A DNA stretch of 44,882 nucleotides from an uncultured Clostridia bacterium (GTDB lineage Bacteria > Bacillota > Clostridia > TANB77 > CAG-508), in contig CALXPV010000002.1 of the NCBI GenBank assembly GCA_944390295.1, positions 1 to 44,882 on the forward strand, given 5' to 3'. The position numbers were made by a program, and so were the translations under genes. Below the pieces are notes generated by a model. It was not told the DNA's origin, ran no database searches, and saw only the letters and a list, made by a program, of their open reading frames with translations. Positions 3,302 through 20,875 of the stretch are shown one piece after another (position 1 is the first letter of the stretch; each line of letters opens with the position of its first letter).

Positions 3302-5123
3302 ATTCAACTGTTACTGATTTAGCAAGATTTCTTGGTTTATCAACATCTAATCCCTTTGCTTTAGAAATATAATAAGAAAGCAATTGTAAAGGAATTATTG
3401 AAAGCACTGGAGCAAAACATGGCTCTGTTTTTGGAATATTAATAACTTTAAAAAATTGTGAGTTATTAAGTTCTTGATTTGTAATTACTAGTGTTTTTGC
3501 ACCACGTGTTATTACTTCTTGCATATTGCTTACTGTTTTTTCAACTAATAATGGATTTGTAATAATTCCAATTACAGTAACATCATTTTCTATTAATGCA
3601 ATAGGTCCATGTTTTAATTCTCCTGCAGCATATGCTTCAGAATGAATATAAGAAATTTCTTTTAATTTTAAAGAAGCTTCTAGGGCAGAATAGTAATCTA
3701 ATCCTCTACCTAAAAAGAACATATCTGTCTCTTTATATACAATACTTGAGAAATTTTTAATTTCTGCAACTGTTCTTAGAGCTAATTCAGCTTTTTTAGG
3801 TAATTCTAATAATTCTTCTTTTAATTTTGATATTTCTTTTTTAGAAACTGTATCTAAAACTTCAGCAAAATATAATGCTAAAATATTTAATAATACAACT
3901 TGTGAAGTATATGCTTTTGTAGAAGCAACTGCTATTTCTGGACCAGCATGTGTATAAATACAATAATCTGCTTCACGAGTAATAGAGCTTCCTATAACAT
4001 TTGCCATTGCTAAAGTTTTTGCACCTTTTTCTTTAGCTAATTTTAATGCTGCTATTGTATCAGCTGTTTCACCAGATTGACTTATAAAAATACATAAAGT
4101 TTTCTCATCAACTAATGGATCTTTATATCTAAATTCTGAAGCAATTTCAACTTCAACAGGAATTTTGCATAAAGATTCAAATGTATTTTTTACAGTATAT
4201 CCAGCATTCATTGCAGTACCACATGCTACTATATATAATTTATTTAAGCTTTGTAAGTATTCTTTAGATATACTAAAATCATTAAAAGAAATTTTATCTT
4301 CTGAAAGTTTAGAACCAATAGTTTCTCTAATTGCATTTGGTTGCTCATAGATTTCTTTTAACATAAAATCATCATAACCATCTTTTTCTGCTGAAGCAGT
4401 ATTCCATTCAATACTTTTTATTGGCTTTTCTATTTTATTTAAATCATTATCATAAAATTCTATATTTTTTCTGGATAAAACTGCAAATTCACGATCATTT
4501 AAAAAATAGAAATCTTTTGTAAATGAAAGTATTGCAGGTATATCTGATGAAATATAATTTTCATTTAGACCTTTACCTATAACTAAAGGACTATCTTGTC
4601 TTACAACAATCATATTATCAGGATAATCTTTGCAAAGTATTTCTAATGCAAAACTTCCTTTTAAATCATCACATGCTTTTTTTACAGATTTAAGAAAATC
4701 CTTTTCTTTTTTATAATAATAACTAATTAAGTTAGGGATAACTTCTGTATCTGTATCAGAGAAGAAAGTATATCCTTTATCCTCTAATAATTTTCTTAAT
4801 TCATGATAATTTTCTATAATTCCATTATGGACTACAGCAAAGGTATTGGTATTGTCATAATGAGGGTGAGAATTTTCTGCAGAAGGTTTCCCATGTGTTG
4901 CCCAACGAGTGTGGCCAATACCAATAGTTCCTTCTAAAGTATTTATTTCCTCTATAGAATTTAAATTTGCAATTCTACCTTTTTCTTTTACAACTTTTAT
5001 GCCATCATTTTCGATTGTGGCAATTCCTGCAGAGTCATAACCTCTGTATTCTAATCTAAGTAAGCCATTAATTAAAATAGGCTTAGCCTTTTTGGTTCCT
5101 ATGTAACCAATTATTCCGCACAT
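3300..5123 (-). CDS. glmS: Glutamine--fructose-6-phosphate aminotransferase
   Basis: 607 aa. N-terminal MCGIIGY (Ntn Cys), two SIS domains, C-terminal ...LAKSVTVE. Confidence 0.97.
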   Translation of the reverse strand: MCGIIGYIGTKKAKPILINGLLRLEYRGYDSAGIATIENDGIKVVKEKGRIANLNSIEEINTLEGTIGIGHTRWATHGKPSAENSHPHYDNTNTFAVVHNGIIENYHELRKLLEDKGYTFFSDTDTEVIPNLISYYYKKEKDFLKSVKKACDDLKGSFALEILCKDYPDNMIVVRQDSPLVIGKGLNENYISSDIPAILSFTKDFYFLNDREFAVLSRKNIEFYDNDLNKIEKPIKSIEWNTASAEKDGYDDFMLKEIYEQPNAIRETIGSKLSEDKISFNDFSISKEYLQSLNKLYIVACGTAMNAGYTVKNTFESLCKIPVEVEIASEFRYKDPLVDEKTLCIFISQSGETADTIAALKLAKEKGAKTLAMANVIGSSITREADYCIYTHAGPEIAVASTKAYTSQVVLLNILALYFAEVLDTVSKKEISKLKEELLELPKKAELALRTVAEIKNFSSIVYKETDMFFLGRGLDYYSALEASLKLKEISYIHSEAYAAGELKHGPIALIENDVTVIGIITNPLLVEKTVSNMQEVITRGAKTLVITNQELNNSQFFKVINIPKTEPCFAPVLSIIPLQLLSYYISKAKGLDVDKPRNLAKSVTVE

Positions 5124-5169: not shown

Positions 5170-5306
5170 ATAGCTACACAATTAGATTTGTTCTACTATC
5201 ACTAGTAGTTTTTGCTAATATTTATGGTTGTAGCAGACCACAGAGTACCCGCCGAATATTTCGATAAACTCTGACCTCGTCAACACTATAAGTGTCCTGG
5301 CGCTTT
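5170..5306 (-). ncRNA. glmS ribozyme (GlcN6P-responsive) in the glmS 5' leader
   Basis: Minus strand reads A|GCGCCAGGAC...GACGAGGTCAGAGTTTATCGAAATATTCGGCGGGTACTCTG..., matching the conserved glmS ribozyme core (AGCGCCAG, GACGAGG, UUAUCGAA, UUCGGCGG). Confidence 0.85.
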
Positions 5307-5556
5307 ATTAATTGTCATTTATAATATATAAAATAAACCTCCCTTCAAATATTATTACATTGTAAACTTTTTGGTTTACGCTATTATATTATAATAAAAA
5401 AGAAAAAGTATCAAGTCCAATATAATAAACAAGTAAATACCTTGTCAAAAAAGGTCGGATAGAAATGCTGTAAACATATTGAAATTAGTATAAAAAGGGT
5501 GTAAAATACTTAAGATACTAAAGTTCTATTTTTATATCCAAATTGGAGGGAAAAGT

Positions 5557-10063: not shown

Positions 10064-10228
10064 AATAACCTCCTATTAATATAAAATACAGTAATATTAT
10101 ACCATAAAATAAAAAAACTATAATTAATTGATATATAACTGTAATATAAAAGTAATATTTTGGAAATACACAAATTAAGTCAAAAAATGTATAATATAAA
10201 TGTAAAAAAGCGAAAAGGAGAGATAAAT

Positions 10229-10903
10229 ATGTGGACATGTTTATATTTAAGTCATATAGTTGTAATTATAATGATAATAATAGCTGTTTTAGGTATATTT
10301 TATGGAATATCACAAAAAAAGATTAAAGCATATCAAGTTATCGTTGTTTTTATATTTTGCGTAATTTCTATGGCATTAGTTGCAGGAATAACATCAATGA
10401 ATTGGATAAGTGATTTAAATGCTGAAACAGAAGCTAGTTTTAATAATACAAAATATGATTATTGGTTAGCTGATTCAAGTGAATTTTCAAGATTAGTAAG
10501 TGATAACCTTGATTTTACAAAATATGTTGATACGACTACAGGAAATATAATTGCGGTAAAAAATCAAGCAATATCTACAAACGATAAAGCAGATTTAACA
10601 GATGAAGAAGAAGCGAAAGAAGCATATGAAAATATAGTTATTAAAGACGAATTTAACTTATCTGATGATTATTTAATAACATTAGATTCAGAAAAATTTA
10701 TAAAATTAACAGATGATTTATATTATGTAAGTTATAATTATGAATATACTAAAGATGACGAAAAAGAAACAGGAAAGATTTATTTTATAGCAGATGCTAA
10801 CTATGAAATGAAAACATTTGTTATGACAAATTTAATTAATGAAGATACAGAAAAAGATTTTACAAATAATGTACTAGATCTAATTGGCACAATGGAATTA
10901 TAA
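10229..10903 (+). CDS. Hypothetical N-terminally anchored (2 TM) extracytoplasmic acidic protein
   Basis: ATG at 10229 follows AAAGGAGAG. The track's upstream extension lacks an RBS. Confidence 0.55.
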   Translation: MWTCLYLSHIVVIIMIIIAVLGIFYGISQKKIKAYQVIVVFIFCVISMALVAGITSMNWISDLNAETEASFNNTKYDYWLADSSEFSRLVSDNLDFTKYVDTTTGNIIAVKNQAISTNDKADLTDEEEAKEAYENIVIKDEFNLSDDYLITLDSEKFIKLTDDLYYVSYNYEYTKDDEKETGKIYFIADANYEMKTFVMTNLINEDTEKDFTNNVLDLIGTMEL

Positions 10904-10917
10904 GGAGGTAGAAGAAT

Positions 10918-11307
10918 ATGACAATGGCGTTAAACTTTGTTTTTGATATAATAGTCGCAATTTTAGTATATGAATATTTAAAAAGAGACAAAAAAGTGGA
11001 AGCGTATGCATCAGCAGTTATAGTTAAAGTAGCATATTTTCTATCATCTACTATAATATTGGGACAATTTAATTTTGCAGAATTTATATTATACGTATTA
11101 GTTATGGTTTGTATTGCTAGATTATATATGATAATAATAGAAACAGTATATACAAAAGAAATGAAAACAATATTATTTATATTTGTAGCTTCACTAATTG
11201 GAATGGTTATAATGACATTTATGGGACAAATTTTACATACATTATTATTTGAATTATTAACATTATTTGCGACAACATTTAATTATTCTTTACAAAAAAT
11301 ATCATAA
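10918..11307 (+). CDS. Hypothetical 4-TM membrane protein
   Basis: RBS GGAGG. Hydrophobic 129-aa ORF 14 nt after the preceding gene. Confidence 0.55.
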   Translation: MTMALNFVFDIIVAILVYEYLKRDKKVEAYASAVIVKVAYFLSSTIILGQFNFAEFILYVLVMVCIARLYMIIIETVYTKEMKTILFIFVASLIGMVIMTFMGQILHTLLFELLTLFATTFNYSLQKIS

Positions 11308-17322: not shown

Positions 17323-17379
17323 TAAAAATGAGCAACTTGTAATATTTTAATGCCAGCATTTGGCAGAAGGAGGAAAGAA

Positions 17380-18096
17380 ATGAAAGGGCAAAGAACGAGT
17401 TGGATAATGGAGCAGGAGATGCTTGAAGCTAATGTAGCTCCAAATATTTATGAGGAGCTGAAAGAGGCATGGAAGCAAGAAGCAGAATCACTTCGGCAAT
17501 CAATTGAAACATGGGAAAAACCGAAGGGTATTCTGTATGCGGCATCACTTAAAACTGCAGGACTGGTAAGATATATGCCGGTGCAGAGTTCCTTAACAGA
17601 AATTCCGTTTAGGGATGAAAGTAAAGGCGACACAACATCTACTGTAGCATCCAGTGGATGTGCAATTATCGTAGCGAAGTTCTTGGAACGGTATTTCGAC
17701 TGTGACAAGAACATGCAAATTAAGCATCTGGCAGAGATGGCCGTGGAATGTGGATACTGCGACTACAAACTGGTGGACGGAGTCTGGAAGAAGATGGAAA
17801 TGGCCCATATCTGGTTCGATAAATTTGTGCCGAGATTTTTCGGACTTAAGAGTCAGAGAATATCTGATATCAACCAGATTATGTTCGCTCTGGACGAAAA
17901 AAGAGTGCCGGTTCTTCTTGTCAGGAATTCTGTTTACAAACAGGATCCGGAAAACACCGATTCACACTTGGTATGTGTATTAGGAATCGACAAGAACGGA
18001 TATCATCTTTACGATCCGGAAATCCCGGAGATAACTCGTTGTGAATTCGAAAGAATTCACGAATCTATTCGTTTAGGATGGATTTTCTCCAAATAA
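17380..18096 (+). CDS. Papain-fold, peptidase C39-like cysteine peptidase (cytoplasmic, stand-alone)
   Basis: ATG at 17380 is 5 nt after GAAGGAGGA. Candidate triad Cys in SSGCAIIVAKFL, His in DSHLVCVLG, Asp in YDPE (about 100 and 16 residues apart). No signal peptide. Spot GC is about 42%. Confidence 0.5.
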   Translation: MKGQRTSWIMEQEMLEANVAPNIYEELKEAWKQEAESLRQSIETWEKPKGILYAASLKTAGLVRYMPVQSSLTEIPFRDESKGDTTSTVASSGCAIIVAKFLERYFDCDKNMQIKHLAEMAVECGYCDYKLVDGVWKKMEMAHIWFDKFVPRFFGLKSQRISDINQIMFALDEKRVPVLLVRNSVYKQDPENTDSHLVCVLGIDKNGYHLYDPEIPEITRCEFERIHESIRLGWIFSK

Positions 18097-18108
18097 TGCG
18101 AAAGTGTG

Positions 18109-18138
18109 CAAGCAGATAGAGATTCTTCTATCTGCTTG
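18109..18138 (+). terminator. Terminator of the peptidase gene
   Basis: CAAGCAGATAGA-GATTCT-TCTATCTGCTTG. Confidence 0.7.
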
Positions 18139-18165
18139 TTCCTAATATAGTAGATTAGAATAATA

Positions 18166-18200
18166 AAAATCGCTTGGTAATAATTATACCAAGCGATTTT
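18166..18200. terminator. Stem-loop terminating the minus-strand small-peptide genes
   Basis: AAAATCGCTTGGTA-N7-TACCAAGCGATTTT, 36 nt downstream of the peptide-B stop on the minus strand. Confidence 0.6.
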
Positions 18201-18235
18201 GAATTTTAAGGACAAATTTAAAAATTAAAATATGA

Positions 18236-18358
18236 CTAACAGCATCCGTTTCTTCTATTTCCACCGCAACAACAGAATATTAAAATTAATAATATTATCC
18301 ATATGCAACTGTCATCACCGAAACCGAAGCCACATCCACAACCTCTATTTTCTGGCAT
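18236..18358 (-). CDS. 40-aa Cys/Gly-rich single-TM peptide B
   Basis: Translated by hand: MPENRGCGCGFGFGDDSCIWIILLILIFCCCGGNRRNGCC*. SD AAAGGAGGG is 6 nt from the ATG. Below the ORF-track length cutoff. Confidence 0.6.
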   Translation of the reverse strand: MPENRGCGCGFGFGDDSCIWIILLILIFCCCGGNRRNGCC

Positions 18359-18441
18359 TGTAATCCCTCCTTTCGATAACTAAGTACTATAATTGATACT
18401 GCTCAATTATAATTACTGAAGAAAAATTAACAGTAATTTAA

Positions 18442-18564
18442 TTAGCATCCACAAGGATCACATGGTGAGTCACATCCGCATCCAGCATTTCTGCCATTTC
18501 CACATCCACAGAAAAGTAATAAGAAAAGAATGATGAACCATAATAAATCATTATTACAACACAT
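18442..18564 (-). CDS. 40-aa Cys/Gly-rich single-TM peptide A
   Basis: Translated by hand: MCCNNDLLWFIILFLLLFCGCGNGRNAGCGCDSPCDPCGC*. SD AAGGGAGG is 8 nt from the ATG. Paralogous to peptide B. Confidence 0.6.
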   Translation of the reverse strand: MCCNNDLLWFIILFLLLFCGCGNGRNAGCGCDSPCDPCGC

Positions 18565-18712
18565 AATAATTACCTCCCTTTTCTCTAAAACCTAAGTATT
18601 TATTTTCTTAGTATGATATATCTTATTCGAAAGTTATCTATTGTGTTACTAAAAAAATAATGATATAATTTTTTGCAGAATGGTAGTGTATAAAGAAAAA
18701 GGAGATAAATTT

Positions 18713-20875
18713 ATGGGTAATATAGTTTTATTAGATGATTTAACAATTAATAAAATAGCAGCCGGAGAAGTTATTGAAAGACCAGCATCTGTAGTAAAAG
18801 AAATGGTAGAAAACTCAATAGATGCAGGAGCAACAGCAATAACAGTAGAAATAAAAAATGGCGGAATTTCTTTTATAAGAATAACTGATAATGGAAAAGG
18901 AATTGCAAAAGATGATACAGAAATAGCCTTCGAAAGACATGCAACTAGTAAAATAAGAACAGCAAACGACATAGAAACAATACATTCTATGGGGTTTAGA
19001 GGAGAAGCTTTAGCAAGTATTGCAGCAGTTGCAAATGTTGAATTAGTAACAAAAACAGAAAAAGATGAAATAGGAACAAGAGTAGTAGTAGAAGCAGGTA
19101 AAGTATTAGAACATGAAGAAATAGGATGTAAAACAGGAACATCAATTACAGTTAAAAATTTATTTTTTAATACACCAGTAAGATATAAATTCTTAAAAAA
19201 AGATTTTACAGAATCTGGTTATATAGAAGATGCAATAACAAGACTTGCATTAGTAAATCCACATATTGCATTTAAATTAATAAATTCTGGAAAAACAATT
19301 ATACAAACAAATGGTAATGGTGATGTTCAAGCTGTTATATATGGAATATATGGAAAAAATATTGCAGAAAACGTACTTAAAGTAGATTATACTTATGAAG
19401 ATATTCATATAACAGGAGTTATTGGAAAGCCAGAAATAGCAAGATCTAATAGATCAAACCAATTATTCTTTGTTAATAATAGATATGTAAAAGATAAAGC
19501 TTTATCTGGCGCAATAGAAAAAGCATTTAAAGGATTACTTACAATAGGAAAATATGCATTTTCTATATTAAATATAGATATGGATCCAGCAAAAGTTGAT
19601 GTTAATGTTCACCCAGCAAAATTAGAAGTAAGATTTGCAGATGACTCAAAAATATTTAAATCAGTATATCATGCAGTAAATGATACATTGCTAAAAAATG
19701 ACTTAATAAAAGGATCTGAGAAACCAGAAGAGGGATTTGTAAATACTCCAAATACATCTTTGTTTGGTAATAGAGTAAGTCCAACTACAGAAGCTTTACA
19801 AAAAAATAGATTTAATGGATTATTAGAATTACAAAGAAAAATAAAAGAAGATTTAGAAAAGAGTAAAGCTGAACTAAACAGTAAATCAGAAGAAGAAAAT
19901 AAATTATTAAATACAGTTAAAAATATAGAAAATCCATTAGAAAATAAAGCTTCTAATGTTGAGGAAACAAAACAAGATATAAAAGTAGAAGAAAGTGAAG
20001 CACCAAAAGATATAACACCAGAAGAACCAAAAATAAAAATAGAGCAATTAGAAGAAGCAAGTAAAGAAATAGACAAACAAATAGAAAATATAGCAAATGA
20101 AAACATAAAAGAAACACCAAAAACATCATTTGATGAGATGTATTTTAAAATATTTGGAACAAAGCCACCAAAACCAGAAGGTAATGAAGATAGCAATAAA
20201 GATGAAAATGAGATAGAAGATAGTGCACATTTATTAAAGCCAAATGAAGTAGAAAATACTAATTTATTTGATAATATAGAAGATGATTATAAATATAAAC
20301 CACAATATAAATTTGTAGGAATAGTATTTAATACTTATATTATTTTTGAAATGGATAATGAAATGTATATTATGGATCAACATGCTGCTCATGAAAGAAT
20401 TATGTTTGAAAAAGTAAAGAAAAATTATTATTCAGACGAAGCAAAAGATTCTCAATTAATGCTTTTACCAGATATTATTACTTTAACACATAAAGAAATG
20501 GATATTGCAAAAGAAAATATGGATTTATTTAGAAAAGCAGGATTTATAATAGATGAATTTGGTGAAAATACAATAAAAATATCTGGAACACCAAGTATTT
20601 GTGTTGATTTAAATACAAGAGAATTATTCTTAGAAACATTAGATGAAATAAATGCAGTAGCAAGAACAGCTAAACAAGAAAAAGAAAATAGATTCTTAGC
20701 AACAATAGCTTGTAAATCAGCAGTAAAAGCACATATGGTTCTTACAAAAGAAGAAGTTGAAAGTTTAATGGATGAACTTTTAAAATTAACTAATCCATTT
20801 ACATGCCCACATGGAAGACCAACAGTAATTAAAATGTCAAAATATGAAATAGAAAGAAAATTTGAAAGAAAATAA
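18713..20875 (+). CDS. mutL: DNA mismatch repair protein MutL
   Basis: GHKL N-terminus LDDLTINKIAAGEVIERPASVVKEMVENSIDAGAT. C-terminal endonuclease motifs (DQHAAHERI, FTCPHGRP). ATG at 18713 follows AAAGGAGA. Confidence 0.95.
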   Translation: MGNIVLLDDLTINKIAAGEVIERPASVVKEMVENSIDAGATAITVEIKNGGISFIRITDNGKGIAKDDTEIAFERHATSKIRTANDIETIHSMGFRGEALASIAAVANVELVTKTEKDEIGTRVVVEAGKVLEHEEIGCKTGTSITVKNLFFNTPVRYKFLKKDFTESGYIEDAITRLALVNPHIAFKLINSGKTIIQTNGNGDVQAVIYGIYGKNIAENVLKVDYTYEDIHITGVIGKPEIARSNRSNQLFFVNNRYVKDKALSGAIEKAFKGLLTIGKYAFSILNIDMDPAKVDVNVHPAKLEVRFADDSKIFKSVYHAVNDTLLKNDLIKGSEKPEEGFVNTPNTSLFGNRVSPTTEALQKNRFNGLLELQRKIKEDLEKSKAELNSKSEEENKLLNTVKNIENPLENKASNVEETKQDIKVEESEAPKDITPEEPKIKIEQLEEASKEIDKQIENIANENIKETPKTSFDEMYFKIFGTKPPKPEGNEDSNKDENEIEDSAHLLKPNEVENTNLFDNIEDDYKYKPQYKFVGIVFNTYIIFEMDNEMYIMDQHAAHERIMFEKVKKNYYSDEAKDSQLMLLPDIITLTHKEMDIAKENMDLFRKAGFIIDEFGENTIKISGTPSICVDLNTRELFLETLDEINAVARTAKQEKENRFLATIACKSAVKAHMVLTKEEVESLMDELLKLTNPFTCPHGRPTVIKMSKYEIERKFERK

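Follow-up and report, generated by a model that had tools for sequence, protein, structure and literature searches.

The question raised by the 44,882-nucleotide stretch of contig CALXPV010000002.1 (assembly GCA_944390295.1, an uncultured Clostridia bacterium), hereafter called the window, is whether a short interval beside mutL encodes peptides and, if so, of what kind. On the minus strand between a 248-amino-acid open reading frame (ORF; 17350-18096, plus strand) and mutL lie two ORFs of 40 codons each, here called A and B. An earlier reading made from the letters alone (the sequence-only reading) had proposed them as paralogous genes for Cys/Gly-rich single-helix peptides, each preceded by a near-consensus Shine-Dalgarno site; we recovered the same coordinates and the same Cys counts exactly. 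As described below, A and B are real genes under purifying selection, and the sequence evidence makes it rather probable that they are co-transcribed, tiny one-helix membrane peptides made late in the mother cell during sporulation, with a thiol-based role in the spore envelope. The genes and their Shine-Dalgarno sites are:

18442-18564, minus strand: gene A, 40 amino acids, MCCNNDLLWFIILFLLLFCGCGNGRNAGCGCDSPCDPCGC, 9 Cys; a short N-terminal end (MCCNND), a hydrophobic helix (LLWFIILFLLLF), then a 22-residue Cys/Gly/Asn-rich tail ending CDSPCDPCGC
18573-18580, minus strand: Shine-Dalgarno site of A, AAGGGAGG, 8 nucleotides ahead of its ATG, kept in all orthologous loci
18236-18358, minus strand: gene B, 40 amino acids, MPENRGCGCGFGFGDDSCIWIILLILIFCCCGGNRRNGCC, 8 Cys; a conserved N-terminal end (MPENRGCGCG), a Gly/Phe/Asp stretch, a hydrophobic helix (IWIILLILIF), then CCCGGNRRNGCC
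18365-18372, minus strand: Shine-Dalgarno site of B, AAGGAGGG, 6 nucleotides ahead of its ATG

High Cys content by itself is within chance expectation here, as 4 of the 75 ATG-initiated ORFs of 30-60 amino acids in the window contain at least 8 Cys and 2 of these 4 are antisense artefacts; it is conservation that lifts the A/B pair above chance. In public assemblies, gene callers predict the identical A product in 153 blocks, where it invariably lies between groEL and mutL and is oriented divergently from mutL, and they also predict B in sister lineages. These calls never carry a name, such that the description of A and B as unannotated, correct for the ORF list available to the sequence-only reading, applies to public assemblies only in the sense that the genes are unnamed. 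Six loci are near-identical to the window and differ from it in coding sequence only by a synonymous GGA/GGT change in A and by Ser18Cys in B. In more distant orthologous loci (L007-L012, L023, L024 and L026) both ORFs and both Shine-Dalgarno sites are retained, while the spacer between the genes diverges in sequence and in length (63-83 nucleotides) and the ORFs on either side of it are conserved. Differences between orthologues are concentrated at third codon positions: for gene B, 9 synonymous and 3 non-synonymous codon differences separate the window from L007, 8 and 1 separate L007 from L009, and 9 and 0 separate L035 from L037. Orthologues of A, at 85-98% identity, have gene lengths of 108, 117, 123, 126 and 129 nucleotides, all multiples of 3, with insertions and deletions in frame. 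The synonymous excess, in-frame indels, conserved Shine-Dalgarno sites and diverging spacer together establish that A and B are real genes under purifying selection, with homologs conserved at the amino-acid level and free of frameshifts.

To delimit the family, we used a set of 5.8 billion proteins, 1.84 billion representative proteins (clusters at 50% identity) and a scan of one genome per species. B-type proteins, of the form MPENRGCGCG...GDDC.WIIILLIIIFCCCGGN..GCC, account for 33 clusters in the 5.8-billion-protein set, several of them from NCBI assemblies and none named, and one B-type relative is present in 376 assembly blocks. At E <= 1e-3, a profile search of the representatives returned 85 clusters, of which 33 had E <= 1e-10. 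Relatives from the species scan are 41-55 amino acids long, with the form MC..FGGN.CCWIIILILLFCCCGNN followed by (GCGC)n, and come from metagenome-assembled genomes of uncultured Clostridium, Oscillospiraceae, Ruminococcus, Acutalibacteraceae, Ruminiclostridium and other Clostridia; all named family matches are Clostridia. Each scanned relative has a strong Shine-Dalgarno site, and a GC-rich terminator-like hairpin with a T-run follows most family loci examined. Within the window, the family profile matches A and B only. B stands alone at the same groEL-mutL position in some Clostridium lineages (L022, L035/L037). The divergent A type turned up in fewer lineages, that of the window and L026 alone, and A is accordingly the younger of the two paralogues. 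A scan of A, B and 10 diverse relatives (12 members in all) against Pfam and NCBIfam returned no family even at E <= 10, a profile search of the PDB returned no relative, and full-text literature searches found no description of the peptides, in keeping with the sequence-only reading, which could not assign them to a named family. On these sequence grounds, they form a new, widespread and uncurated family of Cys-rich micro-proteins with a sigma-K promoter signature, described below.

One further candidate from the genome scan, a 78-amino-acid Cys-rich ORF of Clostridium sporogenes (L027, 4408-4644, plus strand), was rejected as a member: the family profile gives it only 0.5 bits, and nothing can be learned from its neighbours. 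In this ORF, CC follows each of two hydrophobic segments. It has a strong Shine-Dalgarno site, precedes a gene starting MSKHKKKHKHKYD and may be another unannotated small Cys-rich gene.

The proposed paralogy of A and B is supported by a profile built from B-type sequences only: when the window was cut into 1047 six-frame fragments, A had the second-highest score with this profile (21.9 bits, E = 9e-6). Pairwise BLASTP between the two is not significant (E = 5.8), and the conclusion draws on the profile result and the alignment. Proteins in which two family units are fused through a Cys/Gly/Asn linker, about 10 among the representatives plus L029 and L032, suggest that the units act in pairs, and A, with its long C-terminal tail, and B, with its long N-terminal tail, probably pair with each other.

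The remaining features of the unit bear on how the two genes would be expressed:

18644-18649, minus strand: sigma-K-type -35 element, GTAACA, with its 'AC' at 18646-18645
18619-18627, minus strand: sigma-K-type -10 element, AATAAGATA, 17 nucleotides after the AC; an A-for-C variant of CATAnnnTA
18613-18614, minus strand: predicted transcription start, giving a 5' untranslated region (UTR) of about 49 nucleotides
18359-18441, minus strand: A-B spacer, 83 nucleotides, with a weak AT-rich hairpin at 18412-18437
18159-18200, minus strand: intrinsic terminator after B, a 14-bp stem (18200-18166) with a T-run

The hairpin after B (folding free energy -19.4 kcal/mol, z = -6.1; none of 200 shuffles folds as well) is the sole terminator-like site within 17900-18900, and the spacer contains no T-run, no terminator and no sigma-K motif. 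Because the spacer lacks both a terminator and a promoter motif and one strong terminator follows B, the simplest reading is that A and B probably form one bicistronic transcript, as had been suggested. We make no claim for two lesser hairpins: that of the spacer, which is weak and not clearly conserved, and a candidate 5'-UTR stabiliser at 18592-18611, which folds no better than shuffles (z = -0.8). At the 5' end of the unit, the ORF list starts mutL at 18680 (plus strand), but its homologues begin MGNIVLLDD, which corresponds to an ATG at 18713. The divergent intergenic region between mutL and the peptide genes is therefore about 148 nucleotides long and must hold both promoters.

Alignment of the upstream regions of family loci revealed a common two-box motif, (G)TAAC[A/C]-N14-16-[C/A]ATAnnnT[A/G]. 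We scored it in a strict form, TAAC[AC]-N14-16-[CA]ATAnnnT[AG], and in a loose form (the AC form), in the family units, in control upstream regions from the same loci, and in mapped Clostridioides difficile promoters (PMC7438776 Table S6):

Family units: strict 21/27, loose 25/27
Control upstream regions, same loci: strict 2/231, loose 12/231 (5%)
Mapped C. difficile SigK promoters: strict 9/27, loose 17/27
Mapped C. difficile SigE promoters: strict 0/54, loose 0/54

The motif is thus conserved in the family and specific, its strict form occurring only 4 times in the whole window on the two strands together, and it matches what has been reported for sigma-K. Sigma-E and sigma-K promoters have the same -10 box and differ at -35, ATA versus AC, and an AC at -35 together with a CATATAAT-like -10 is the definition of a sigma-K promoter given by Saujet 2013 (PMC3789822). 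Mapped C. difficile SigK promoters carry (G)TAACA at -35, with a spacer of 15-18 nucleotides, mostly 16-17, from the AC to the -10 (PMC7438776). The transcription start of the A-B unit was predicted from the 13-14 nucleotides that lie between the beginning of the -10 and the start in these mapped promoters. The A-B unit thus appears to be read from a sigma-K-type promoter, and from such a promoter A and B would be expected in the mother cell late in sporulation.

Two observations made along the way concern other transcripts. A second strict sigma-K-type motif (TAACC-N-AATACAGTA), at 10066-10093 on the plus strand, lies just ahead of two ORFs (10160-10903 and 10918-11307) that are without any Pfam family and may be another late-sporulation unit. 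In family genes of the Oscillospiraceae type, the predicted transcription start is immediately followed by a common GC-rich hairpin in the 5' UTR, GAAACGGAAGC..C...GGGAGC..GGTTTC (L013, about 3905-3960, and corresponding regions of L014, L015 and L019); this hairpin has no Rfam match and might stabilise the mRNA or have a regulatory role.

Under the interpretation that we favour, A and B are probably small components of the spore envelope or of the mother-cell membrane. Sigma-K RNA polymerase would transcribe a bicistronic mRNA of about 0.45 kilobases late in the mother cell, a step that has in silico support, and the near-consensus Shine-Dalgarno sites would give efficient translation. The helices would then become embedded in the outer forespore membrane or in the membrane of the mother cell, and the RR in the C-terminal flank of B together with its acidic N-terminal flank suggests that B would lie with its N-terminus out and its C-terminus in. 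If A and B pack antiparallel as in the fusions, the long C-terminal tail of A and the long N-terminal tail of B would lie on the same side. More speculatively, as the spore envelope matures, the thiol-rich tails might become joined within it through disulfides or metal-thiolate bonds. Only tentatively, and with more doubt than conviction, can this be extended to a model in which A and B are the halves of an antiparallel two-helix hairpin whose Cys/Gly/Asn-rich segments, all on one face of the outer forespore membrane, build a layer cross-linked by thiols (disulfide or metal-thiolate), as a hitherto unrecognised micro-protein class specific to anaerobic endospore formers.

Several points weigh against parts of this interpretation. 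Many of the 27 loci scored for the promoter motif are close relatives; by our own grouping, which was not computed, they represent about 15 independent lineages, about 13 of which have the loose motif, and two family loci, L029 and L033, are without it. The -10 of the window begins with A instead of C (AATAAGATA), a variant with precedent, since AATA-type -10 boxes are known among C. difficile SigK promoters, e.g. that of cotE (AATAGAATA; PMC7438776). A sigma-A-like site (TAGATA-16-TATCAT, 9/12) overlaps the sigma-K-type motif, making dual sigma-A/sigma-K control of the unit possible, and the sigma-K assignment itself stands on a sequence motif only. As for pairing, the A-type and B-type profiles give nearly the same score to the unit that comes first in the fusions, and the fusions therefore support association between units in general rather than A-B pairing specifically. 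Finally, the AlphaFold model of a fusion member is of low confidence (predicted local distance difference test score, pLDDT, 53.5); it places helices on the hydrophobic cores, but these are two helices only, without reliable packing.

Cys-rich proteins of the spore surface in Clostridia and Bacilli include CdeC and CdeM of C. difficile and CotY and ExsY of Bacillus. Like A and B, they would be late products of the mother cell, and for both the proposed role is to cross-link the outer spore layers by disulfides, but they are much larger, are soluble or self-assembling, and have no transmembrane-like helix. The Pfam and NCBIfam scans of the A/B family, which gave no match of any kind, showed no sequence similarity to them. 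SpoVM (26 amino acids) and CmpA (37 amino acids), small morphogenetic peptides of the B. subtilis mother cell (PMC10730256), are very small sporulation peptides made in the mother cell and acting at the forespore surface, as A and B would be. The helix of SpoVM, however, is amphipathic and Cys-poor and SpoVM acts earlier (PMC10730256 and general background), whereas the A/B family has a fully hydrophobic helix and at least 20% Cys; SpoVM has no homology to the family.

The same thiol-rich composition could instead indicate that A and B are membrane-anchored metallothionein-like or redox-buffer peptides, handling Zn, Cu, Fe or oxidants for the spore without any structural role, which we regard as unlikely. 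Cys makes up 20-23% of their residues, in C-X-C, CC and CxxC motifs (CGCGC, CCC and CDPC) of the kind typical of metal-thiolate clusters, and the C-x-C-x3-C-x2-C-x-C pattern of the A tail is conserved among orthologues; metallothioneins, too, contain these motifs, have a Cys content of at least 20% and are accompanied in this by Gly, Asn and Asp residues. Metallothioneins, however, lack a hydrophobic helix, and the A/B family has a conserved one. With no Pfam or NCBIfam match to metallothioneins or any other family and no relative in the PDB, membership was rejected, and no metal transporter or regulator is linked to the family genes in the 19 diverse loci whose neighbourhoods we compared.

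The closest known kind is the YjcZ group of 'tiny TM' sporulation proteins of Bacilli, represented by PF09680 (YjcZ_2 in Pfam) and TIGR01732 ('conserved hypothetical tiny transmembrane protein'). Members of both groups are 30-55 amino acids long, are encoded by stand-alone small genes, and have a Gly-rich flank and one very hydrophobic helix that starts with an aromatic residue, ends at Gly and is followed by Gly-X repeats. Alignments of the family show this architecture (up to about 50 amino acids, a variable Gly-rich flank, and one helix ending at Gly). Timing may be common to both as well, as yjcZ of B. subtilis has been assigned to the sigma-K regulon (PMC517825). On the other hand, the flanks of the A/B family are rich in Gly, Cys and Asn (GCGCG, CCCGNN) and those of YjcZ in Gly and Tyr (GYGGGYG); the helix of the A/B family, W-IIILILLF-CCC-G, has no counterpart of the near-invariant FALIVVLFILLIIVG of YjcZ; and the tandem pairs, the two-unit fusions and the restriction of named matches to Clostridia, as opposed to Bacilli, set the A/B family further apart.

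The two groups might nevertheless be related by descent, with A and B as highly divergent true homologues of YjcZ in which Cys has replaced Tyr. Similar size, a Gly-rich flank, an aromatic residue leading into about 12 hydrophobic ones closed by Gly, Gly-X repeats to either side, sigma-K control (for A/B, from the promoter motif) and an apparent limitation to Firmicutes lineages known for sporulation all favour such descent. We nonetheless think it improbable: none of the 12 members matched PF09680 or TIGR01732 at E <= 10, in a scan where a synthetic YjcZ consensus used as positive control scored 49 bits against a cut-off of 21, and a profile-profile comparison by hhalign of 39 family sequences with 36 named YjcZ sequences gave a probability of 19.5% over 4 columns. 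The likeness to YjcZ and tiny-TM proteins seen in the sequence-only reading therefore holds for architecture but not for membership by sequence; the conserved sigma-K-type promoter makes the link to sporulation stronger than that reading could show. By analogy, then, the A/B family resembles YjcZ in architecture and inferred timing without being a demonstrable member, and it may be an anaerobe's counterpart of YjcZ in function and architecture rather than in detectable ancestry. The Gly/Tyr flanks of aerobic Bacilli and the Gly/Cys flanks of anaerobic Clostridia would, on the same analogy, suggest dityrosine cross-linking in the former and disulfide or metal-thiolate cross-linking in the latter.

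Single-helix peptides of 40 amino acids also fall within the range of size and hydrophobicity of type I toxins and small holins, and A and B could be membrane-damaging peptides, either permeabilising the mother cell for spore release, a role that a late mother-cell promoter would suit, or forming a toxin-antitoxin locus. We judge this quite improbable, since the conserved parts include the Cys/Gly tails (MPENRGCGCG, CDxPCDPCGC, CCCGN) and not a charged C-terminus. Promoter-like sites in the region number 4 against 4.9 expected by chance, and although they include one 9/12 site on the plus strand inside B, no antisense promoter stands out. Rfam searches at gathering and permissive thresholds found nothing at the peptide locus. 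The locus is also not mobile: in those Clostridium lineages that were examined it keeps its place between groEL and mutL, and B had no match when plasmid and phage collections were searched by tblastn, a search whose sensitivity the low-complexity filter may lower. The Rfam searches did identify two elements elsewhere, a glmS ribozyme/riboswitch (RF00234) in the window at 5170-5315 on the minus strand (86.8 bits, E = 1.8e-18) and a flavin mononucleotide riboswitch (RF00050, 108.6 bits) in the related locus L015 (1216-1330, minus strand), the latter unrelated to the peptide genes.

Small, Cys-rich tandem peptides, next to what the sequence-only reading took for a possible peptidase, would also be compatible with exported precursors of ribosomally synthesised and post-translationally modified peptides (RiPPs) or bacteriocins, of a thioether or sactipeptide-like kind; the evidence makes this very improbable. 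No gene family is conserved among the neighbours in the 19 loci, which are housekeeping genes such as those for MutL, McsA/McsB/ClpC, NifS/ThiI, FtsZ and a methionine-gamma-lyase-like protein, and neither radical S-adenosylmethionine, LanB/C/M and cyclodehydratase enzymes nor a C39 peptidase or a dedicated ABC exporter is conserved near the members. The suspected peptidase is the 248-amino-acid ORF that converges on the peptide operon, and it matches no peptidase family, nor anything else in Pfam, NCBIfam or the PDB. Its GC content is about 0.43, compared with about 0.27 in its surroundings; related loci have variants of 236-258 amino acids, L009 lacks it, and L035 has a sigma-70-family gene and a 672-amino-acid ORF in its place, so that it looks like a variable, possibly acquired insert. 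Co-occurrence with a C39-like peptidase or ABC exporter, which the sequence-only reading had suggested checking, is thus not borne out. The peptides themselves also lack a leader or double-Gly (GG/GA) motif: in A, MCCNND directly precedes the helix, and in B the N-terminal MPENRGCGCG is itself the most conserved part. The conserved, strongly hydrophobic core, the sporulation-type promoter and the absence of matches in the plasmid and phage collections argue in the same direction. Of the metal, disulfide and thioether chemistries proposed for the Cys clusters, all of them speculation, the thioether is disfavoured because no modification genes lie nearby.

That A and B might be spurious ORFs in a non-coding intergenic region, as the 2 other Cys-rich ORFs in the window, the ease with which the antisense strand of AT-rich genes yields such ORFs by chance and the non-significant BLASTP comparison could suggest, is effectively refuted by the conservation pattern, i.e. 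the synonymous excess, the in-frame indels, the Shine-Dalgarno sites kept while the spacer diverges, and the significant family matches across families of Clostridia.

The A/B family is thus best placed among the tiny sporulation membrane proteins and is not a categorically new system. Spores drive the transmission and persistence of gut Clostridia, and beyond B. subtilis and C. difficile most of what the mother cell does late in sporulation is uncharted. Annotation routinely overlooks genes of 40 codons or leaves them without a name, and this family merits a curated model, given its abundance in gut metagenomes, its conservation in several families of Clostridia, its clean regulatory signature and its unusual composition, with at least 20% Cys on the flanks of a putative membrane helix. 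As a possible thiol-based part of the spore envelope or the mother-cell membrane, it is a candidate that can be tested. If the tentative model of a thiol cross-linked layer were true, that layer would be an anaerobe's chemical alternative to the Tyr-based chemistry that aerobic Bacilli have in their Gly/Tyr-rich YjcZ and coat peptides, with consequences for the spore resistance or oxygen tolerance of gut Clostridia.

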